Shown here piece after piece: positions 1-13,545 of a stretch of 17,827 bases of DNA. The notes beneath the pieces are model-generated. The model worked only from the letters and a program-made list of their open reading frames with translations, was not told the DNA's origin and ran no database searches. This stretch comes from a virus (Duplodnaviria; Heunggongvirae; Uroviricota; Caudoviricetes): the IMG/VR virus record IMGVR_UViG_2563366903_000004; one strand, given 5' to 3'. The first letter of the stretch is position 1. Each line of letters starts with the position of its first letter. The position numbers and the translations under genes were made by a program.

Positions 1-247
1 CACGCTCAATGGCGTTAACCCGGTCGCATTTTCCCTTCGACAGCTTCATGCCAGGAATAACAGGCTTACCATCCACCCGGGTGGCTCCACGGCAGATGGT
101 CCAGATCCCCGCACCATCACGGTATGCCATGGTGTGGTTACCTTCTTTTTCGTCAAGAAACTGGTCGAGGATTTCAGGCGCAGACGCCCCTGCACCAATC
201 AGCGCCAGAACGGCAGCCGACAGGCCGTATCTGATTTTTGCGTTCAT
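1..247 (-). CDS. R: Endolysin (phage lysozyme, SAR-type), partial; 3' end lies beyond window start
   Basis: Minus-strand ATG at 245-247 with an in-frame stop 3 codons upstream; translation MNAKIRYGLSAAVLALIGAGASAPEILDQFLDEKEGNHTMAYRDGAGIWTICRGATRVDGKP... has a hydrophobic N-terminal signal-anchor-release segment followed by a lysozyme-like motif; recalled similarity to Qin-type prophage lysozyme RrrQ; sits downstream of a pinholin. Not in the ORF track because it is edge-truncated. Confidence 0.7.
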   Translation of the reverse strand, partial: MNAKIRYGLSAAVLALIGAGASAPEILDQFLDEKEGNHTMAYRDGAGIWTICRGATRVDGKPVIPGMKLSKGKCDRVNAIER

Positions 248-335
248 GGATATTTATCAGGATTTATCGGTTCCGAATCCCTGGATATGTTAAGTCTTCA
301 GCCCGCCAGTGGTGGGCACTGGCGTAAACTCAACA

Positions 336-548
336 ATGCGAGATGGCTGCCTCGCAAAGATAATCAAAGCAATGGATGCACTAAGTAAAAATAACGCTGT
401 GTCAGATTACCTGATCGCCGAAATGGAACATCTAATTAAAGAAATACCAAAGACAGTTGCTCGTGATGATAAAAGATTCCTCAAGGCTGCTGAAGATGCT
501 CTTTCAACAGTGAAGCGCAGCTTAGATGCGCCGCGCGATCAAGAATAG
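336..548 (+). CDS. Hypothetical small protein on opposite strand inside the lysis cassette (uncertain)
   Basis: ORF 309..548 (GTG at 309; first ATG at 336); helical-looking sequence MRDGCLAKIIKAMDALSKNNAVSDYLIAEMEHLIKEIPK...; no clear Shine-Dalgarno; overlaps the 3' end of the convergent 481..945 ORF. Confidence 0.2.
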   Translation: MRDGCLAKIIKAMDALSKNNAVSDYLIAEMEHLIKEIPKTVARDDKRFLKAAEDALSTVKRSLDAPRDQE

Positions 549-945
549 TTTCTTTCATTTCATCTGCTGCAAGCACCTCATTTTTTGTTGGGGTGCTTTT
601 TTTCAATTCAGCGATATAGCACTCCAGTTTTTCAATGCGTGATTCAATATCATCGTTTTCTGACCGCAATGCCGTCGGTGGCGTCTTCAGAGAACCAGTA
701 ATTATTCCCGGTAGTTTTCCTCTGTAGGTTATCAACACATCCTGCGCCTCTAAAATTATGGGGCGCTTTTCCGGCGACTGCTCATCCCCTTCACATAAAG
801 CGGCAGCAATATCCATGAAAAACTGCTTCGCCTGTTTTTTCGCCTCAGCTTCGTAAAACTCCAGCGTGGCACCTTCAGTACGGTCAAGACTAATCGCCAC
901 ATATGGCAACAACAGTGACGGATACCCACCAATTTCCAGTGCCAC
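481..945 (-). CDS. Hypothetical protein between holin and endolysin (position equivalent to ydfR in Qin-type lysis cassettes)
   Basis: 154-aa ORF with a GTG start (plus 943-945 is cac); codon usage looks coding; same strand as the flanking lysis genes; no recognisable catalytic motif. The true start may be an internal ATG (e.g. at 816). Confidence 0.45.
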   Translation of the reverse strand: MALEIGGYPSLLLPYVAISLDRTEGATLEFYEAEAKKQAKQFFMDIAAALCEGDEQSPEKRPIILEAQDVLITYRGKLPGIITGSLKTPPTALRSENDDIESRIEKLECYIAELKKSTPTKNEVLAADEMKETILDRAAHLSCASLLKEHLQQP

Positions 946-1015
946 AGTAGCAGTAATCTTATCCGGGTAATTATTTATCCCTTTAACAACCAGTTTGTAT
1001 TATTTATTCATCGCC

Positions 1016-1231
1016 TTACTCTCCCCGCGCTGCCTTACGACGGTCCTCTCTGATTTTGAAATACAGGTTAGTCAGATATGTCAGCAGCCCAAACAGCAGA
1101 CTCCCCAGCACGCCTATTGCCGCCCACTGAGACGGGGAAACCCTGTCCAGCAACTGCAGGAACCAGTAGCCCGTTCCCACCGCTGACGTGGTGTATGACA
1201 CACCTGTTGTGATTTTTTCCATCTGGTACAT
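1016..1231 (-). CDS. S: Holin, class II pinholin (S21/EssQ-like), dual-start motif
   Basis: 71-aa [74 protein letters not shown]; Met1/Met4 dual start typical of holin/antiholin pairs; two transmembrane segments; near-identical to recalled phage 21 S / E. coli EssQ. Confidence 0.85.
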
Positions 1232-1306
1232 ACCCCGTCTCCCGTACTCGGAAGCTCACAACAACAAAAGGGCCACCAGCTCTTTACTGATGACCCTGAC
1301 TCACCG

Positions 1307-1597
1307 TTACAGCATTGTGCCCGATTCTGGCTGTGTGTCTGTCATATCCGTCACCGGTGGCTCCGGCTGAATATCACCATTTTCCGTGGTGACATCTTCC
1401 GCCTGTGGTTCCGGAAGCAGTTCCGGGGATGGTTCCGGCTGTGCACCAAGCAATTCATCCAGAATGGCATCCACTTCTGCATCAAGACGCGCCTCAAGGT
1501 TCTGCCGAAGTTGCTGTTTCAGTGCGCTCCGGACTTCTTCAGAGCGCAGGACTTCCTTCACTGCCTCAGCAGTGACCAGCGATTTTATTTCTGACAT
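1307..1597 (-). CDS. Hypothetical acidic protein (96 aa)
   Basis: Internal ATG at 1597 of ORF 1307..1771 gives MSEIKSLVTAEAVKEVLRSEEVRSALKQQLRQNLEARLDAEVDAILDELL...; start chosen so that it does not overlap the upstream 64-aa gene; weak RBS. Confidence 0.4.
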   Translation of the reverse strand: MSEIKSLVTAEAVKEVLRSEEVRSALKQQLRQNLEARLDAEVDAILDELLGAQPEPSPELLPEPQAEDVTTENGDIQPEPPVTDMTDTQPESGTML

Positions 1598-1622
1598 AGG
1601 ATTTTCTCGTTGAAAGGGGTTA

Positions 1623-1817
1623 TTAAGAAGGTTGTTCCGGAATGAGTGGGGCTTCTGTTTTTGCTCCGGCTGACTGACTGGCGCTGATTTTCTCTGCGGC
1701 CCTTTTATCAATCTGCCTGCGCCAGAAATCGCGCACTGCCCTGTACCCACCCGAAAGAAGATACAGCACACAGACCGCCGTACAGAAGTACAGCATCACC
1801 TGATGAACAAATGTCAT
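1623..1817 (-). CDS. Small membrane protein (64 aa)
   Basis: ORF with ATG at 1815-1817; hydrophobic N-terminus (VMLYFCTAVCVLYLLSGG) followed by a basic tail; lies between the nanS-p-like gene and the holin on the late strand. Confidence 0.4.
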   Translation of the reverse strand: MTFVHQVMLYFCTAVCVLYLLSGGYRAVRDFWRRQIDKRAAEKISASQSAGAKTEAPLIPEQPS

Positions 1818-1914
1818 AGTTTCTTACCGTTATGGTTGACAATGAGAACTGTTTTCATTTAAAAAACCGATATACGAAAGCATCTTTTCTTTACATTCTC
1901 CATTGGGATTACCT

Positions 1915-1951
1915 CCGCCAGCTTCCGTTCCTGCCGCTGGCGGTTTTTTTT
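1915..1951 (+). terminator. Plus-strand intrinsic terminator abutting the nanS-p-like 3' end
   Basis: CCGCCAGC ... GCTGGCGG 8-bp GC stem (13-nt loop) followed by eight T on the plus strand; on the minus strand it follows the esterase stop codon but lacks a U tract. Confidence 0.5.
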
Positions 1952-1956
1952 GCCGG

Positions 1957-3939
1957 TTATGATGATGCCCGGCTTTCGTTAACTTTGACTGTGACCGTAT
2001 CAAGCAGTACCGGATACGTCGCTTTTGCCCCCGTGATATCTGTCAGCGTCAGCGTATCTGCTGTAAAGCCATCATTTGTCCACATCACCAGGTCAAACGC
2101 AGACTGCTCTGTATCATCAATCACCGGCACCACTTTTTCGCTGTTATTTCCCGCAAAGCGGAAAACAACTGTATGCCAGTTATGGTCAAATGCCCCAAAT
2201 GTGCCCAGTTGCGCATTCGACTCCCCCTTGTGGTACATCAGATTCAGATTTGATGCATCCGTCTGAAGGAAGAAGGACGCCAGCATGCTGTTTGCTGTCG
2301 CGCCTGACGCCCACTGCGACACCGGCCAGTACAGACCAAAGACAAACTGACCGTTAACCAGTTCGACACCCTCCGGGATCTTAAACCGCACGGCAATTTC
2401 ACCTCCCTTACTGAGAAGATTTTTTGCCTCCTCCACCGCAACAGTACGGAACATCTTCCAGGAGGTCAGTTTACCCGGCTGTTTTTCCAGTCGCAGCGCC
2501 TTCCTGCCACTGTCATCCGTCACAGTGCCTTTACCACCGGACGCATTCCACTGCTGCTCTGTCCATACACCACTGCCACTGTTCGCATCATATCCGGCCA
2601 CCATTCTTGTTACGGCTTCAGTATGACCGCCTGCAGAAGTACCTGCACCCTGCTGTTGCGTCGGACCCGCAGAGCCAGACTGTGCATCCCCCGTGGAGGC
2701 TGGCGTGGTCGCCAGCGGTGCAGACTGCCCGCTCAGGAACGGCAGCAAACGCCCGGCTCGCACCAGTATCTCTCCTGCCAGCCGATCTGAAACAATGCCT
2801 CTTCGCGCCCAGGAGCTGAAGTGCGTTTTACGATCGGCTGTCGTCCAGTTACCATTACTGCGTGACGCGGCACCATAGTATCCCGCCGTGATAATGTCCG
2901 GATCTTCTGACGGCTCGTTTGTCGGCACATTCGCACCATGCTCATCCGTCATCAACGGCACAAAGTGAATATTCTGCGCCGCCTTGCCTTTATAGCCTCC
3001 GTAAACCGCCTCATACTGCACTGCATACTTCGCCTTCCAGTCGTACGTGGTGTCACCGCAAATCCACGGGACGCCGGACGTTGTCCCGCCAATACACTGG
3101 TCTGCAATATCTGCCAGGTCTGCACGGTATTTATTTACCATGGCAAGAAAAAGTGCATTGTGCTCTGCATGTCTCCCCGAACTGACATCTTTTTCCCCCT
3201 GCATCCAGATCACCGACAACAGCACGTTTTTCGGATTTTTCTTCAGGGCCGCACGGGTTCTGCTGACCAGGTCATGATACAGCGGTTTATCCGCCCCCCA
3301 CAGGGACGAGCCTGCGGTCGCTCCCGACGCTTCGTTAAACGCCCCCTCGGCCCCCGCAGTAAATCCCGAATCGCCACGGCCACATGGAACAAGAAGGATA
3401 CCCGCATTCGCAGGCATAAACGGCAGCAGCTTTTTGGCAACATGCAGAGCATGCCCCACACAACCGTACTGCCCTTTATTGAGGTCTGCTTTCGGGTGAT
3501 TCAGATTACTCACGTCCTGCACATCATGCAGACAGTGGTCTGCCGGAATGATGTCGTTATATTTACAGGCGGCACCACCCGGCGTCACCGTACTGCGACG
3601 CGCCAGCTGTTTAATACGCGGGTCCGGACGGTCATATGTCTCCGGCAGCGGCAGCCCTTCACCAAAAGACATTGAGTTTGACTGCCCCGCCAGAACAACA
3701 ACAAAGTAATACTCCGGTTCGCTGGTGGTGCTGATAACTGTGCCTTCTCCATCCGACGGCTTCACCACCACAGGTGTGGTGACATCACCTTCCGCCGCAA
3801 TGGCCTGCATCAGGGTATAAGGCGTGATGGCGACAGGGCTGCCAAATGGCTGCCACCCCTCCTTCAGTTTTTGTGTCAGTCGCTCCGCAAGGTCTGACGG
3901 CGATGCCGCCCTGACAACATCATAGTGTTTAAATGCCAT
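1957..3939 (-). CDS. nanS-p: Prophage sialate O-acetylesterase, NanS-p-like (SGNH hydrolase family)
   Basis: 665-aa ORF 1957..3954; GQSNSMSFGEG matches the SGNH/GDSL active-site block; recalled similarity to the large esterase gene found downstream of stx in EHEC lambdoid prophages; the second Met (ATG at 3939, preceded by GGTGGAAAG) is the more likely start. Confidence 0.75.
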   Translation of the reverse strand: MAFKHYDVVRAASPSDLAERLTQKLKEGWQPFGSPVAITPYTLMQAIAAEGDVTTPVVVKPSDGEGTVISTTSEPEYYFVVVLAGQSNSMSFGEGLPLPETYDRPDPRIKQLARRSTVTPGGAACKYNDIIPADHCLHDVQDVSNLNHPKADLNKGQYGCVGHALHVAKKLLPFMPANAGILLVPCGRGDSGFTAGAEGAFNEASGATAGSSLWGADKPLYHDLVSRTRAALKKNPKNVLLSVIWMQGEKDVSSGRHAEHNALFLAMVNKYRADLADIADQCIGGTTSGVPWICGDTTYDWKAKYAVQYEAVYGGYKGKAAQNIHFVPLMTDEHGANVPTNEPSEDPDIITAGYYGAASRSNGNWTTADRKTHFSSWARRGIVSDRLAGEILVRAGRLLPFLSGQSAPLATTPASTGDAQSGSAGPTQQQGAGTSAGGHTEAVTRMVAGYDANSGSGVWTEQQWNASGGKGTVTDDSGRKALRLEKQPGKLTSWKMFRTVAVEEAKNLLSKGGEIAVRFKIPEGVELVNGQFVFGLYWPVSQWASGATANSMLASFFLQTDASNLNLMYHKGESNAQLGTFGAFDHNWHTVVFRFAGNNSEKVVPVIDDTEQSAFDLVMWTNDGFTADTLTLTDITGAKATYPVLLDTVTVKVNESRASS

Positions 3940-4552: not shown

Positions 4553-4590
4553 GACAAAATCAATATAAACAGCCCCTCCGGAGAGGGGCT
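4553..4590 (-). terminator. Intrinsic terminator-like hairpin downstream of the GC-rich structured region
   Basis: Perfect 8-bp stem AGCCCCTC-cgga-GAGGGGCT (4571-4590), followed on the minus strand by a U-rich tail GUUUAUAUUGAUUUUG. Confidence 0.5.
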
Positions 4591-4830
4591 GGAGAGTGGC
4601 GCTATGTGCCATTGCATGGTGCCGGGTGCCTCCCGGTGAGTTCAGTATCAGCACCTGAACCCGCACAGAAAGGATAAGGGTCGGTGACAAAACACCAGTT
4701 GCTGATTGCCCCTCCGCACAGGGGGATTCACCATGCCAGTTTCTTTTAACAAACTCCCCGCAAACCAGACAACAGTCAACCGCCTGAATTGTGAGGCATT
4801 TAAAAATTTCAACGGGTAACTGATACCCTG

Positions 4831-5591: not shown

Positions 5592-5670
5592 TGGAGCGGG
5601 TAGCGGGAATCGAACCACGATAAGAAGGTTAACAGCCTTCCGTAATGACCTTTATACGACTGACCCAAAT
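5592..5670 (-). pseudogene. Degenerate tRNA-like element (tRNA relic) between Q and tR'
   Basis: Minus strand has a canonical T-arm/3' end (GGTTCGATTCCCGCTACCCGCTCCA) and a perfect anticodon stem-loop GAAGG-CTGTTAA-CCTTC (anticodon GTT) with a D-loop-like AAAGGTCA, but acceptor and T stems do not pair, so it is not an intact tRNA. Confidence 0.3.
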
Positions 5671-8377: not shown

Positions 8378-8536
8378 AATGACGCCCTCGAGTGGTTTCT
8401 AAACTATCACCACCGTCAGGTTCCTAATCATCGGGTGGCGAGACGTACAGGGTTAGGAACTACCGGGAAACCAACCGGCGAGCTTTTCAGCTCCCCTATA
8501 CGCCCCACCATAATTCAGATGTGCGTGTGCATACGA

Positions 8537-8561
8537 CAATAAAAAACACGCTCGCGGCGTG
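8537..8561 (-). terminator. Intrinsic terminator between ninE and the ORF6N cassette
   Basis: Minus strand ACACGC-cgcga-GCGTGT hairpin followed by TTTTTTATT. Confidence 0.55.
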
Positions 8562-8654
8562 TCTCTGTCGCGGTTTCTATCCGGGGTTCCTAATCCCGAC
8601 GCCAGATTTTGCTGGCGCGTGAGGAATATAGCCCCGAATAAATCATCACGTCAA

Positions 8655-8837: not shown

Positions 8838-9361
8838 GCCGCCCTCCTGACGCCCTGCCCGATCGCCATCAATGCCGCTTTGGATACGGTAGTAAACATC
8901 CGTCGAGGACTGATGAACGGTCGCCAAATCAGCAGCATGGAACCTTTGCTGTTTCCCTTCTTCTCCAGCCCTGTCGATGGTTCGATAAAATTAATCCGTC
9001 CATCAGTGATGATGCGAACTTCGTCAACACTCTCCAGAGCCTTACTGAACCATCCGACAGACATATCCTCTGGCACAAGCATCACTACCGTCTGTCGTTG
9101 TTGTATGCACTGCTCAGCGGCTTTTTCCACCCACGGCCTGATATTGCTGTACGGTGGGTTATTCCAGATTGCACCGTGGCTTACCCACTCAGAATTGAGC
9201 GCGTCGTCGGCCTCAGTTAGCCAGTGAGCACACAGAGCATTTTTGTCGCTCGCTGCCGAATCCAGCCAGAATCCAAACTCAATATCCAGTGCATCAAAAA
9301 GCCAAAGCGGCGTTTGCCAGCAGTCCTTGTCGTGTGCTGGCGTATTTGATTTGATAGTCAT
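8834..9361 (-). CDS. Phage DNA N6-adenine methyltransferase (Dam-like)
   Basis: Start taken at the internal ATG 9361, which overlaps the ninB stop as ATGA; [59 protein letters not shown]...[11 protein letters not shown] has the NPPY catalytic motif of N6-adenine methyltransferases. Confidence 0.8.
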
Positions 9362-9804
9362 GCAGCCTTCCCTTTTCGTTGTGACCATTCATACTCTCGC
9401 CAGGAGTCATCACTCCACCGCACGTTGCGCTCTGAGCCGAACCAGAACATGATTTCGATAAGCTCAGTCATGCTGGCCTTCCGCATTTTGCTGGTGCGCA
9501 CACCAAGCATGACAACGCCACCGCCGATACCAGGCGCACTTCGTTGCTCCAGTTTTTTGGTCTTAAGCCACAGGGCAGTGAACAGGTCTTTCCAGTCTTC
9601 CGGCGCCAGCCGTTGACCATGCCATAGCACCTGACGCGAAACATCGTTCAGCATCGGCCACATACGGTCATTCTGCGCTTTGCTACGCTTGGGTTCTTTA
9701 ACGTGGACTTCGTGGGGTGACTTGTCGTCGATGGGTAGTGAGAGAATGGCGTCTATGGCGTTATTTCTGATTGCTTCGTTGCGAAGCAGAAAGGTTTGCT
9801 TCAT
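9358..9804 (-). CDS. ninB: NinB (Orf) recombination mediator
   Basis: Internal ATG at 9804 of ORF 9358..9906; MKQTFLLRNEAIRNNAIDAILSLP...DVSRQVLWHGQRL...WSDDSWREYEW aligns along its length with recalled lambda NinB. Confidence 0.85.
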   Translation of the reverse strand: MKQTFLLRNEAIRNNAIDAILSLPIDDKSPHEVHVKEPKRSKAQNDRMWPMLNDVSRQVLWHGQRLAPEDWKDLFTALWLKTKKLEQRSAPGIGGGVVMLGVRTSKMRKASMTELIEIMFWFGSERNVRWSDDSWREYEWSQRKGKAA

Positions 9805-9997
9805 CTCCTGCTCTCCGGTTCCATTTTTCAGCCGCCGCAGCAACTGATGGTGCCCACGCCCCCCTGGCTTCACAGAGGTCACATTCTGCATAGCCCCACA
9901 CATCAATATTTATTCCGGCCTCAACCCACAGACGAGCATTACCGCCGCAAAACGGACATTCTTTTAGCTTTGGCTGGGTTAATGATAGGTCGCTCAT
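9761..9997 (-). CDS. Lar-family restriction-alleviation-like protein (zinc-finger)
   Basis: ATG at 9997 with a strong GAAGGAG RBS; KECPFCGG...ECDLCEARGAW...WNRR matches the Cys motif pattern recalled for Lar family proteins; C-terminus overlaps the ninB start by 44 nt. Confidence 0.45.
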   Translation of the reverse strand: MSDLSLTQPKLKECPFCGGNARLWVEAGINIDVWGYAECDLCEARGAWAPSVAAAAEKWNRRAGDEANLSASQRSNQK

Positions 9998-10007
9998 GCT
10001 CACTCCT

Positions 10008-10223
10008 TCACTTTAAATCCAGACTCCGGATAATTCTGTTGCGCTGAAACTCATTGTTGAGTTTGAACAACCGTCGAAGAACACGGTCACGCGGATAGCG
10101 TCGTGCGGCAGGTGAATGCTCATACAACTCATCAAGCGGCAAACTGGACGATGAACGATACCGATACCAACGCACCAACTCTTCACGAAAATTAGCCCTG
10201 ACAAGCTCAGCTATCGTACTCAT
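10008..10223 (-). CDS. Hypothetical basic protein (71 aa)
   Basis: ATG at 10223 with GGAGG 9 nt upstream; occupies the position where lambda has ninB, immediately after the tR2-like terminator. Confidence 0.45.
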   Translation of the reverse strand: MSTIAELVRANFREELVRWYRYRSSSSLPLDELYEHSPAARRYPRDRVLRRLFKLNNEFQRNRIIRSLDLK

Positions 10224-10251
10224 TTCTTAAAGCCTCCAATTACTCTTCCCC

Positions 10252-10282
10252 AAATAAAAAGGCCTGCGATTACCAGCAGGCC
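10252..10282 (-). terminator. tR2-like intrinsic terminator downstream of ren
   Basis: Minus strand GGCCTGC-tggtaatc-GCAGGCC followed by TTTTTATTT; matches the lambda tR2 sequence as I recall it. Confidence 0.75.
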
Positions 10283-10308
10283 TGTTACAAGCTCAGTGAT
10301 GTAGATGG

Positions 10309-10599
10309 TCATCTTTTAACTCCATATACCGCCAATACCCGTTTCATCACTGCACTCTGGCGACACTCCTTAAAAATCAGGTTCGTGCTCACCTTTCCTT
10401 CCCGTTCTTCCCTGGTAGCAAACCGGTAATACACCGTTCGCCAGACCTTACCATCAATGACAAGGATTCCTGCCCGCGCCATTTTAGCCGCAGCCTGATT
10501 TATACTGGTTACGGTTGCGCCTGTTACCGCGGAAACGTCCTGTGCACAGAAGTTCTTATGCGCCCCGAGGTAATGAATAATTGCCTCTTTGCCCGTCAT
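10309..10599 (-). CDS. ren: Ren
   Basis: 96-aa ORF MTGKEAIIHYLGAHKNFCAQDVSAVTGATVTSINQAAAKMARAGILVIDGKVWRTVYYRFATREEREGK... is near-identical to recalled lambda Ren; ATGA overlap with the P stop. Confidence 0.85.
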   Translation of the reverse strand: MTGKEAIIHYLGAHKNFCAQDVSAVTGATVTSINQAAAKMARAGILVIDGKVWRTVYYRFATREEREGKVSTNLIFKECRQSAVMKRVLAVYGVKR

Positions 10600-11297
10600 A
10601 CACTTGCTCCTTTCAGTCCGAACTTAGCTTTAATTTCTGCGATCTTCGCCAGAGCCTGTGCTCGATTTAGAGGTCTGCCGCCCATGACAGGAAGTTGTTT
10701 TACTGGTTCAGGTATCGTCTCACCACGGTTAATTCGTGCTGTCATACAGGTCAGTTCATCGGCAGCCTTGCGCCGTAATTCCGCGTCAGTCAGCGCATTG
10801 GCCCGCATGTTCTGGTACAGGTTGGTAACCAGCCAGTAGTGCGCGTTTGATTTCCACGGATAAGACTCTGCATCCGGATACAGGCCACGCTTCCGGCAAT
10901 ACTCGTAAACCATATCAACCAGCTCGCTGACGTTTGGCAGTCCGGCGATAACGGATGCTTCTTCCCGGCACCATGCAACAAACTGCCCGGGTGATGGAAG
11001 AAATGGTCGATTCTGCCGACGGGCTACGCGCATTCCTGCGTTAACCTGTTCCATCGAGGTGATCCCGTTTTCCCGGAAAGCCAGAACCCACTGGCGGCGG
11101 ATTTCATTCAGTTCGTTCTGGCCCCGGTTAGCCAGACTCGCCGGGAAAGTTGCCAGTAACTGGCTGAACACACCGTTGATGATCTGCGCTACCTGTTGTA
11201 CCTGCGGCTTTTCGTCGTACTGTTCCGGCATGTTGTTGGCGATCCGACGCATCTGCTCACGGTCAAAGTTAACCATCTGTGCGGCGATGTTTTTCAT
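10596..11297 (-). CDS. P: Replication protein P (DnaB helicase loader)
   Basis: 233-aa ORF MKNIAAQMVNFDREQMRRIANNMPEQYDEKPQVQQVAQIINGVFSQLLATFPASLANRGQNE... is near-identical along its length to recalled lambda P. Confidence 0.95.
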   Translation of the reverse strand: MKNIAAQMVNFDREQMRRIANNMPEQYDEKPQVQQVAQIINGVFSQLLATFPASLANRGQNELNEIRRQWVLAFRENGITSMEQVNAGMRVARRQNRPFLPSPGQFVAWCREEASVIAGLPNVSELVDMVYEYCRKRGLYPDAESYPWKSNAHYWLVTNLYQNMRANALTDAELRRKAADELTCMTARINRGETIPEPVKQLPVMGGRPLNRAQALAKIAEIKAKFGLKGASV

Positions 11298-11965
11298 AAA
11301 TCCACCCCGTAAATCCAGTCAGTGTTTGTCAGGTCGAGTTTTGGTTTGCTGGCTGTCACGCCTGCCTGTTGCTTGTTACGGTTGATTTCGAGCTGGGTCC
11401 ACTTGTCGCGGAGTTTGGCCGGACTCAGCACGTTACCGGACCAGAAGTTGTCCTGGCAGGCCCAGCGGAAAAGCACACACATATCGCGGTGGTTACGTCC
11501 GTCACGTTCACGCATCAGGCGGATATCGTTAGCCCACCCTGCAAAATTCGGTTTTCTGGCTGATGGTGCGATGGTCTTCACCATGTCAAACATCCACTCT
11601 GCGGCGGTCAGGTCTTCTGCTGTTCCCCACTTGCTGCCGCTCTGAATTGCAGCATCCGGTTTAACCACAGAAAGATCGTTTTCTGGCTGGTCAGAGGATT
11701 CGCCAGAATTCTCGGACGAATAATCTTTTCTTTTTTCTTTTGTAATAGTGTCTTTTGTGTCCCCCTGTTTTGAGGGATAGCAATCCCCTAATTTGAGGGA
11801 TGTTTTATCCCTCGTTTTAGGGGGGGTTCCCTCGTTTTGAGGGATGTCCCTCATTTTAGGGGAACCTCCCTCGTTTTGAGGGATGCACCATTCTGAGATG
11901 TTTTTATTTGGTCCAAACATGCCGCCTTGCTGCTTGATAATATTCATTCTGACGAGTTCTAACTT
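11294..11965 (-). pseudogene. O: Replication initiator O, C-terminal portion (gene split by IS insertion)
   Basis: Frame continues from the IS junction (AAG TTA GAA CTC GTC AGA ATG AAT ...) into MNIIKQQGGMFGPNKNISEW...TNTDWIYGVDL, matching recalled lambda O residues ~91-299; contains the ori iterons. Confidence 0.85.
11761..11882 (-). repeat. Lambda-type origin of replication: six iteron-like repeats (TCCCTCAAAACGAGGGA on the coding strand), with an adjacent AT-rich unwinding region at ~11700-11760
   Basis: Six copies of ccctc(g/a)ttt(t/a)gaggga-like 16-18-mers at ~19-23-bp spacing inside the O coding remnant, followed by an A/T-rich tract (cttttcttttttcttttgtaatagtgtcttttgtg). Confidence 0.75.
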
Positions 11966-12007
11966 TGAACCGCCCCGGGTTTCCTGGAGAGTGTTTTATC
12001 TGTGAAC

Positions 12008-12898
12008 TCAGGCTGCCAGATCATCGTTTCCGATGGAAGCATAATAAGCTTTTTCTGCTTCTGCCGGAGGAGTATGGCCCAGCCTTTCCAGCAATCGTCG
12101 ATTGTTATACCAGTCCACCCACGTGAGTGTGGCCAGTTCCACTTCTGCACGGTTTTTCCAGCTCTTACGGTGTATTACCTCCGCTTTGTAAAGACCATTG
12201 ATGCTCTCCGCCATCGCGTTGTCATACGAATCGCCTGTACTTCCTGTTGATGCCAGTAATCCGGCTTCCTTAAGCCGCTGTGTGTAGGCCAGCGATACAT
12301 ACTGAGAACCTTTATCACTGTGATGGACCGTGCCGGACGGTCGACGGGCCCATAACGCCTGCTCCAGTGCATCCAGCACGAATGTCGTCTCCATGGACGA
12401 TGAGACCCGCCACCCCACAATGTATCCGGCAAACACATCAATGATGAACGCCACATAGACGAAGCCCTGCCATGTGCTGACGTAAGTAAAATCAGCCACC
12501 CACAGCTGGTCAGGTCGTTCTGCCACGAACTGACGGTTTACGCGGTCGCCTGCGGCAACGGCTTTCCGGCTGATGGTCGTACGGACCTTTTTACCCCGGA
12601 GAACACCGGCAAGTCCCATAACCGCCATGAGACGTGCCACAGTGCATCTGGCCACTCTGATACCTTCCCGTAACAACTGACGCCAGACTTTACGCACACC
12701 GTATACCTTGTGATTTTCATCGTATACGCGCTGTATCTCTTTCTTCAGCCAGTCATCGCGCTGCGCACGGGCACTGCGTTTATCCGGATGATATCGCTGT
12801 TGCTGACAGTGGTAATACGTTGACGGGGCAATATGCAGTTCGCTGCATAGCGGTCCGACCCCGTACTGCTCACGCAGCTTATCCAGCAGTGGCATCAT
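12008..12898 (-). CDS. IS3-family transposase OrfB (DDE catalytic domain)
   Basis: 296-aa ORF; recalled as the IS629 OrfB sequence; normally expressed as an OrfAB fusion by -1 frameshift. Confidence 0.9.
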
Positions 12899-13221
12899 TT
12901 TTTCCAGAGGCGGTCGAACTCCGCCTTCGCAAAATAAGCGGAAGCCTGGCGAAGGATATCGTTACTGCGGCGCAGTTCACGATTTTCACGCTCCAGCTCT
13001 TTCAGACGCTGACGTTCAGCGGTGGTGAGCCCTCCATCACCGCCCCCGGTATCCCGCTCATGCTGGCGAACCCAGACACGCAGAGTCTCCGGCGTACAGC
13101 CAATCTTTGGAGCAATGGAACAAATTGTCGCCCATTGTGAGTCATATTCGCCCTGACTTTCCAGAACCATACGGACTGCCCGTTGACGGACTTCAGGGGA
13201 AAAACGAGTATTTTTAGTCAT
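12895..13221 (-). CDS. IS3-family transposase OrfA (HTH domain)
   Basis: 108-aa [60 protein letters not shown]...; ends in an A-rich run (TGG AAA AAA TGA) overlapping the OrfB start, consistent with a programmed -1 frameshift site. Confidence 0.9.
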
Positions 13222-13272: not shown

Positions 13273-13545
13273 TCACTTGGCTTCATTGCACCGTTTGACA
13301 GGTAACTTTGTAATCTCGCTAAGTTGAGAATCGGTGATTCTGTCCATTGGTTTATTCCACCCATAGGTTTTACGCAGAATGGCAAGCAGCACTTTAAACT
13401 GTCGCTTGGTCAGATCTGCGCCTGAATAAGCCTCAATCAGCATATTTGATAGTCTGGCGTAACCATCATCGAGATCTGCCACATTACGCTCCTGTCCGGC
13501 AAAGTTACTTCTGCCGAAGTTGAGTATTTTTGCTGTATTTGTCAT
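13273..13545 (-). pseudogene. O: Replication initiator O, N-terminal 90 codons (truncated by the IS629-like insertion)
   Basis: MTNTAKILNFGRSNFAGQERNVADLDDGYARLSNMLIEAYSGADLTKRQFKVLLAILRKTYGWNKPMDRITDSQLSEITKLPVKRCNEAK matches recalled lambda O 1-90; the stop codon is supplied by the IS end (TGAACC). Confidence 0.85.

Follow-up and report, generated by a model that had tools for sequence, protein, structure and literature searches.

The early-right region of this phage raises the question of why a short reading frame should run straight through a transcription terminator and be tied by stop/start overlaps to the genes on both sides. The window, which is the entire 17,827-nucleotide stretch of Caudoviricetes DNA analyzed here (IMG/VR record IMGVR_UViG_2563366903_000004), has the gene order O-P-ren-ninA-DUF7301-Lar-NinB-methylase, and the same order occurs in an identical E. 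coli prophage region. Stop/start overlaps of 4 nt link O to P, P to ren, ren to ninA, and ninA to the DUF7301 gene. The initial annotation described a 30-codon frame whose ATG overlaps the ren stop, which crosses a hairpin and U-tract, and whose own stop overlaps the start of a 71-aa gene. Each part of this description holds, with an ATGA at both junctions and with the hairpin and U-tract inside the frame (Table 1). RefSeq labels the identical ren stretch 'protein ren' and the downstream gene 'DUF7301 family protein'. The O gene upstream in the window's prophage is split by an IS3-family element, and given this split the early-right operon of the prophage may no longer be normally expressed.

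Table 1. Features at the ren-ninA-DUF7301 junction, numbered by position in the window.
Feature	Position	Strand	Basis and remarks
ren, 96 aa	10599..10309	minus	ORF list; phrog_142 (Ren-like exclusion protein), E=1.5e-40
ninA Shine-Dalgarno core GGAG	10320..10323	minus	Inside last ren codons; 7-nt spacer to ATG; sequence read
ren TGA	10311..10309	minus	Overlaps ninA ATG (10312..10310); ATGA = 10312..10309
ninA, 30 codons, MTIYITELVTGLLVIAGLFIWGRVIGGFKK	10312..10220	minus	ATGA overlap at each end; phrog_5907 match
tR2 hairpin AGGCCTGC-TGGTAATC-GCAGGCCT (stem/loop/stem)	10283..10260	minus	ninA codons 10-18; terminator scan
tR2 U-tract TTTTATTT	10252..10259	minus	After closing T at 10260; last base is the first of the Trp21 codon
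GGGGAAGAG	10243..10251	minus	Final bases of the conserved ninA/tR2 module; mosaic junction directly 3'
GGAGG Shine-Dalgarno of DUF7301 gene	10233..10237	minus	Within ninA tail codons; 9-nt spacer to ATG; sequence read
ninA TGA	10222..10220	minus	Overlaps ATG (10223..10221) of the 71-aa ORF; ATGA = 10223..10220
DUF7301 gene, 71 aa	10223..10008	minus	Pfam DUF7301 (PF23975), E=3.8e-26; phrog_1785, E=2.1e-33

To judge from its sequence, the 30-codon ORF is almost certainly ninA, the lambda 'Orf26' and the small gene that opens the lambdoid ninR region. Residues 1-26 of the peptide match phrog_5907 (E=4.4e-17), and tblastn finds 100% identity to the NinA of P22 and HK620 over residues 1-23/24. An identical ORF is labelled 'NinA protein' in phage PhiR12_2, the name that UniRef also gives to the 26-aa lambda form, and ninA is annotated in P22, epsilon34, and SE1Spa as well. 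The HK620 record places a 'terminator tR2' feature inside ninA, and the phage 21 record likens a lambda-type ORF to lambda 'Orf26' and marks an RBS for it and terminator tR2 inside it. The position agrees too: the ORF directly follows ren, which it overlaps at the stop and start codons, and it precedes the nin genes.

More than 400 phage records contain the same ORF with its hairpin, as do 2953 of 5426 complete E. coli genomes. The exact 30-aa peptide appears on 490 contigs as a hypothetical protein, and the DUF7301-linked variant is already in the databases. Its family exists in PHROGs only, since the peptide has neither a Pfam nor an NCBIfam family. Both the lambda reference NC_001416 and the RefSeq PGAP pipeline leave ninA uncalled, which is probably why it looked new at first reading. 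The literature, with reference to Kroger & Hobom (1982) and to Cheng et al. (1995), treats ATGA overlaps as general in nin regions; in the 'chain of interlinked genes' that Kroger & Hobom named in ninR, ninA is the first link. All main elements thus have a published description: the gene itself, the ATGA chain, tR2 within the ORF, and the response of tR2 to NinA translation.

The hairpin, first described as tR2-like, is indeed present; rather than a lookalike or a curiosity, it is tR2 itself, inside a named gene. Hairpin and U-tract agree letter for letter with lambda tR2, both in lambda copies and in the tR2 oligonucleotides of Li et al., and the first 70 nt of the window's ninA ORF differ from lambda at four positions. 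The terminator scan reports an 8-bp stem with six G-C pairs, an 8-nt loop, and a TTTTTATTT tail, and the predicted fold reaches -15.7 kcal/mol. A GC-rich stem-loop directly before a U-tract is the arrangement of an intrinsic (Rho-independent) terminator, and the window's tR2 would be expected to terminate transcription in vivo. In reporters, lambda tR2 has a termination efficiency (TE) of about 0.9 (Li et al. 2015, PMC4824070). A transcript with its 3' end within the U-tract would be released without a ninA stop codon. Generic statistics do not single the element out: a terminator/promoter scan of positions 9000-12500 found 3 terminator-like sites against 3.7 expected, and the 131-nt regional fold is no more stable than its shuffles (z=-0.5). 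The case for the element therefore comes from homology and conservation. An Rfam scan of the full window gave no match at ninA/tR2; its hits lay elsewhere.

How far translation of ninA affects tR2 can be read from lambda, where Li et al. (2015, PMC4824070) measured in vivo how TE changes when the RNA ahead of tR2 is translated. In the natural sequence context, TE is 0.25 when the stop codon lies 8 nt before the hairpin and 0.92 when it lies 28 nt before it. The ren stop lies 26 nt from the hairpin in the native arrangement, and from our reading of these distances, a terminating ren ribosome would by itself barely interfere. Ribosomes that start on ninA do have an effect. The W48 construct, which carries the natural lambda sequence with the NinA RBS and AUG upstream of tR2, has a TE of 0.721; silencing initiation raises it to 0.862 when the RBS is changed from GG to CC (W48-up1) and to 0.870 when the AUG becomes AAG (W48-up2) (PMC4824070). 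Read-through accordingly rises from about 13% to about 28% when NinA is translated, and most transcripts still stop. The authors judge the NinA initiation site 'not weak' and explain the small change by distance: a ribosome that starts 30 nt ahead of the hairpin seldom catches up with RNA polymerase (PMC4824070). When tR2 is placed deep inside a translated ORF (W38p), TE falls to 0.40 (PMC4824070), so native re-initiation from ren to ninA could have a larger effect than that seen in W48. Additionally, the upstream reporter is halved in W48, a loss that the authors attribute to trans-translation of stop-less ninA on terminated transcripts (PMC4824070).

The proposal that ribosomes passing through the terminator couple termination to translation is thus correct in kind. 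In lambda reporters the lowering of tR2 termination by NinA translation is real, modest, and already published, and the predicted consequence of mutating the start codon, a change in termination, is what the AUG mutant displays. The 30-codon, DUF7301-linked variant would presumably behave in the same way.

A stronger claim would be that ninA/tR2 is a true regulatory attenuator of the pyrBI or trp kind, in which ribosome position is the main switch into the nin genes. The geometry resembles pyrBI, whose leader ORF crosses the terminator (Table S9 of Li et al., PMC4824070), and the drop in TE from 0.87 to 0.72, or to 0.40 under tightly coupled translation, goes in the required direction. Yet the contribution of the NinA start is small, and the RNA lacks the parts that such a switch uses. 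The centroid fold of the 131-nt region (z=-0.5) contains the terminator hairpin and a small 5' stem, with no alternative antiterminator. The peptide MTIYITELVTGLLVIAGLFIWGRVIGGFKK has no tandem runs of a single residue beyond LL, GG, and KK, and hence no regulatory codon runs. In the 26 nt from the ATGA to the hairpin (CCATCTACATCACTGAGCTTGTAACA), no more than two U's stand in a row, so a U-rich pause tract is missing. A trp-type attenuator was rejected on the first two of these points, and attenuation in any form is highly improbable here. In lambda, it is N antitermination that governs whether polymerase passes tR2.

Comparison across loci shows which parts of the arrangement are kept. About 280 ninA sites were gathered through the Ren protein, through the hairpin alone, and through the ninA N-terminus with a non-lambda continuation, together with 12 annotated phages; anchoring on the hairpin alone leaves the flanks unbiased. 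These sites fall into eight distinct upstream contexts, set apart by the sequence before the ninA ATG. In six of them the upstream gene has a name (ren, a ren-like gene, P22 gp12, an HK620-type helicase, the Si3 primase/helicase, and epsilon34 gp53), and the remaining two are distinguished by the sequence before the ATG only. In all eight contexts the upstream stop lies 0-4 nt from the ninA ATG, and in all eight a Shine-Dalgarno core 4-mer stands 6-11 nt upstream, as against 11% of arbitrary ATGs from the same loci (binomial p=2.4e-8). Conservation begins exactly at the ninA ATG in each of the eight. At the level of sequence, this comparison shows a genuine, conserved, and coupled initiation site at the start of ninA in eight upstream contexts. 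Together with the lambda data, the Shine-Dalgarno core in every context suggests that the window's ninA variant is translated. No NinA peptide is listed in the supplements of a small-gene Ribo-seq paper on O157:H7 Sakai.

The frame beyond the start is also maintained. Among hairpin-anchored sites, codons 2-10 of ninA carry 7 synonymous and 5 non-synonymous distinct changes where 21 and 60 are possible (Fisher p=0.011), an excess of synonymous changes that is based on only 12 distinct changes. Leu8 alone is written as CTA, CTT, CTG, TTA, or TTG. Three different hairpin alleles preserve one open frame and the same N-terminus. The lambda type folds at -15.7 kcal/mol; the HK544/HK97-gp56 type, GGGGCTATT...AGTAGCCC followed by T6, folds at -12.6 kcal/mol; and a third allele, which is the second changed on both sides of the stem (GGGGCCAC...GTGGCC), folds at -14.1 kcal/mol. 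The alleles were compared by separate folds because an ungapped alignment cannot hold one structure: the lambda-type and HK544-type stems pair one base out of register, and a covariation count on a single shared structure was dropped for this reason. Disrupted alleles occur as well, among them a 1-nt deletion at codon 2-3 in five loci, variants in U-tract length, and a few frameshifts. The expectation that the frame and its 5' overlap would be conserved in related phages is largely borne out. Taken together, the start, the Shine-Dalgarno core, the openness of the frame, and its end near the next start favor selection for translation of the frame. The same evidence does not favor selection for a particular protein product.

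This distinction bears on whether NinA itself works as a small membrane protein, with a single membrane-spanning helix of about 20 residues and a basic tail; the peptide sequence would then be under selection, and the terminator would simply share its DNA. The peptide is strongly hydrophobic (best 19-residue window 2.0 on the Kyte-Doolittle scale) and continues into the basic residues GR..KK. At codons 2-10, most substitutions are either silent or conservative (I/V, T/A, L/I), and the HK544/HK97-type allele keeps Trp21 and the hydrophobic character despite its different hairpin sequence. However, the hydrophobic residues are what a GC-rich stem and a U-tract encode in the ninA frame (GGC CUG CUG ... 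CUU UUU AUU), the C-terminal tail changes with every downstream partner, and truncated and frameshifted alleles are in circulation. No Pfam or NCBIfam family covers the peptide, no phenotype for it was found in the literature searched, and the genes lost in the nin5 deletion, ninA among them, are described as non-essential. A PA28-type ORF without the hairpin initially seemed to support a function of the peptide; it proved to be a chimera that arose when an HNH endonuclease gene entered at the 5' stem, and beyond the insert that locus has the hairpin intact. The chimeric ORF is likewise hydrophobic, a property expected from composition alone when AT-rich inserted DNA is read through. Overall, a membrane protein as the reason for the frame is quite unlikely.

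On the 3' side, conservation of the module ends about 9 nt past the U-tract. Loci of the lambda type (class 1) share TTTATTTGGGGRAGRG and then split into at least eight different downstream sequences. The ninA tail is correspondingly variable, with 2-9 codons that differ with each downstream partner. With the eight class-1 partners, the downstream gene starts 0-8 nt from the ninA stop. Five of them overlap the stop by 4 nt, namely NinB, DUF7301, a 92-aa gene annotated with a GTG start, and genes that begin MNLD... and MMRK...; two more overlap by 8 nt, and in the last case stop and start stand side by side (TAAATG). If a 4-nt overlap arises by chance at a rough rate of about 0.1 for each junction, five among eight partners would be unlikely.

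The window's own junction is weaker evidence for the link. Its ATG-AGT is the start of the DUF7301 gene itself, and the same ATGA is found in PA28/06-3462, where no ORF overlaps it. There the leader GGAGGTTTTAAGAAATGAGT precedes the DUF7301 gene, which follows a different gene, and the would-be overlapping frame has a TGA 18 nt upstream. Because the 3' ATGA is intrinsic to the DUF7301 gene, roughly one chance in three would yield the ninA-DUF7301 link of the window. With this ATGA and a GGAGG of its own, the DUF7301 gene would need no coupling, and its dependence on ninA may be weak. Additionally, a W21* allele, in which codon 21 changes from TGG to TGA, ends ninA 27 nt before the DUF7301 ATG. 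It accounts for at most 16 of the 178 copies of the ninA-DUF7301 junction in complete E. coli genome records, or up to about 9%; its high share in a ren-anchored sample of viral contigs was set aside as unrepresentative in view of this count. The idea of a conserved 3' overlap therefore stands as a link within 0-8 nt to eight different partners, and it is qualified at the window's junction by an ATGA that belongs to the DUF7301 gene, by that gene's own GGAGG, and by the W21* allele, which breaks the link.

These features leave room for a simpler account, in which the ORF is incidental, selection acts only on the terminator and on a role as recombination linker between the replication and nin modules, and the overlaps follow from tight packing. 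A block more than 95% identical over hundreds of phages with unrelated flanks is what a recombination-homogenized junction would look like, and the near-identity of the module could reflect frequent recombination there, not selection on translation. The DUF7301-derived ATGA, the omission of ninA by PGAP, and the disrupted alleles agree with this account. It is contradicted by conservation that starts exactly at the ATG in eight contexts, each with a Shine-Dalgarno core at the right distance (p=2.4e-8); by the five synonymous codons at Leu8; and by the 4-nt overlaps with five of eight class-1 partners against a rough chance of about 0.1 each. It is contradicted equally by the activity of the ninA initiation site in lambda in vivo (PMC4824070). 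We regard a purely incidental ORF as rather improbable.

The best explanation as a whole, to which we assign a probability of roughly 0.72, is that ninA enclosing tR2 is a dual-coded module that bridges upstream and downstream genes. The conserved stretch of about 70 nt would carry two overlaid signals, a terminator RNA and a translated short ORF. The hairpin and U-tract would stop early-right transcription by complexes that the N antiterminator has not modified. The ninA ATG would sit on the stop of whichever replication or ren gene precedes it, and the variable tail would end at the start of the next gene. On antiterminated transcripts, ninA would most likely hand ribosomes without a gap from ren over the terminator to the next gene, a bridging role that would keep the 'chain of interlinked genes' whole. 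On RNA made by unmodified complexes, ninA translation would weaken tR2 modestly, as in the lambda reporters (0.87 to 0.72), and terminated transcripts with a stop-less ninA would be targets of ribosome rescue and decay. The codons of the hairpin and U-tract would largely determine the hydrophobic peptide. Identity, anatomy, start-context conservation, and frame conservation come from the present analysis; active ninA initiation, the size of the termination effect, and the upstream reporter loss come from the lambda literature.

The fate of terminated transcripts suggests a further possibility beyond bridging. The stop-less ninA could be a selected device that destabilizes message made without antitermination, or the peptide could have a function of its own; taken jointly, the two are unlikely. 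If the device were real, ribosomes that start at the ninA AUG would become stuck where the terminated RNA ends and draw in tmRNA and exonucleases. The O-P-ren message made without antitermination would then be shorter-lived, and the output of replication protein would respond to the action of N. The sole experimental hint in this direction is the halving of the upstream reporter in W48 (PMC4824070).

For phage biology the consequences are small, as ninA and tR2 are a known pair whose interplay with translation has already been measured. The locus is nevertheless a clean natural case of DNA that encodes a terminator and a peptide together. It also draws attention to a gene that the RefSeq pipeline misses in thousands of E. 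coli prophages, though several phage records annotate it.

Among known systems, lambda ninA/tR2 is the closest. The first 23 codons are equal except for I/V at codon 9, and no letter differs in the hairpin or the U-tract. Both also have the ATGA overlap with ren, the GGAG Shine-Dalgarno core inside ren, and the position between the replication/ren and nin genes. The two differ at the 3' end: lambda NinA closes with the tail GKS (26 aa) and is followed by ninB, whereas the window's peptide closes with VIGGFKK (30 aa) and is followed by the DUF7301 gene, whose ATG-AGT supplies the 3' ATGA. The HK97 gp56/HK544-type ninA shares the N-terminus MTIYITEL[IV]TG, a start coupled to the upstream gene (there a helicase), a terminator-like hairpin with a U-tract inside the ORF, Trp at codon 21, and a tail that overlaps the next gene. 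It has its own hairpin sequence and pairing register, however, a peptide core that reads GAIYTVALFYW, and other downstream partners, reached by a 14-nt overlap or a short gap.

The pyrBI attenuator of E. coli resembles the window in having a short ORF translated through an intrinsic terminator, and there a closely trailing ribosome can block hairpin formation (Table S9 of Li et al., PMC4824070). Unlike the window, which has no U-rich tract before tR2, pyrBI synchronizes ribosome and polymerase by UTP-sensitive pausing; moreover, no more than 30 nt separate the ninA start from the hairpin, and the effect measured for that start is small. Compared with the ATGA-linked nin chains of lambdoid phages, the link in the window is the same in kind, and it is special only by the terminator that it encloses.

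Comparison loci gathered for ninA, the 30-codon ORF that encloses terminator tR2, show several natural changes within its frame. A homing-endonuclease gene of the HNH type, about 0.7 kb long, sits within ninA in phage 06-3462 (PA28; locus L002), and about 21 loci on viral contigs, L307 and L278 among them, carry the same insertion. The insert begins directly behind ...GCAGG, precisely at the tR2 5' stem, and leaves a chimeric 34-codon ORF, MTIYITELIAGLSLLMVLTVYIIKYILYANKKTN. An intact tR2 hairpin lies 1 nt beyond the HNH stop codon (TAA). With the stop codon so close, translation of the HNH gene should largely suppress tR2, judging from the work of Li et al. 2015 (PMC4824070) on lambda tR2 and upstream translation in vivo.

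Two further alleles alter the reading frame itself. In L253 and four similar viral-contig loci, a 1-nt deletion at codons 2-3 (ATGACCATC to ATGACATC) shuts the frame after 7 codons and leaves the HK544-type hairpin intact. These five loci look like natural ninA-null alleles, and such deletions could act as ready-made controls. Locus L242 (IMGVR_UViG_2778261297_000006) carries a third terminator hairpin allele at the ninA site, GGGGCCAC...GTGGCC. Its ninA frame lacks a stop codon and stays in register with the gene that follows (MPKKYDMYD...), so that the two are predicted to form one fused ORF of more than 100 aa. This allele is represented by a single sequence, which may contain a sequencing error.

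In E. coli RefSeq genomes, PGAP annotates 'protein ren' and 'DUF7301 family protein' but nothing in the 85-nt gap that separates them, the site of ninA. Part of a ren-ninA-DUF7301 query matches 2953 of 5426 complete E. coli genomes; among the E. coli records listed, none of 12 has a ninA annotation under the match.

Features at comparison loci and in the window
Feature	Sequence	Position	Strand	Remark
HNH gene within ninA	L002	1339-2080		
PGAP gap at ninA (example)	NZ_CP053284.1	3318919-3319005		L357 9073-9157
O N-terminal fragment	window	13545..13273		Phage_rep_O
IS3-family insertion sequence	window	12008-13221	(-)	
Transposase orfA, then orfB	window	within 12008-13221	(-)	HTH_Tnp_1; rve
ALIL frameshift pseudoknot	window	12824-12940		with orfA/orfB
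O C-terminal part	window	11947..11294		
isrK Hfq-binding RNA	window	8541-8618	(-)	Rfam
a1/b1 target of C4 antisense RNA	window	8578-8631	(-)	Rfam
C4 antisense RNA	window	8431-8515	(-)	Rfam
tRNA	window	5597-5666	(-)	weak, 32.6 bits
STnc100 sRNA	window	4561-4765	(-)	strong, 137.6 bits

In the window, the IS3-family element splits the phage replication gene O, with the transposase genes following the N-terminal fragment and preceding the C-terminal part. The early-right operon of this prophage is broken upstream of ren-ninA, and the prophage is probably defective in replication.

Several RNA families also match elsewhere in the window. The STnc100 and tRNA matches both fall within the late-regulatory part of the prophage. 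The C4, a1/b1 and isrK group (8431-8631, minus strand) adjoins the region of the Dam-like methylase and NinE on the downstream side, and its composition suggests an antirepressor immunity RNA cassette of the P1/P7 or Gifsy type.
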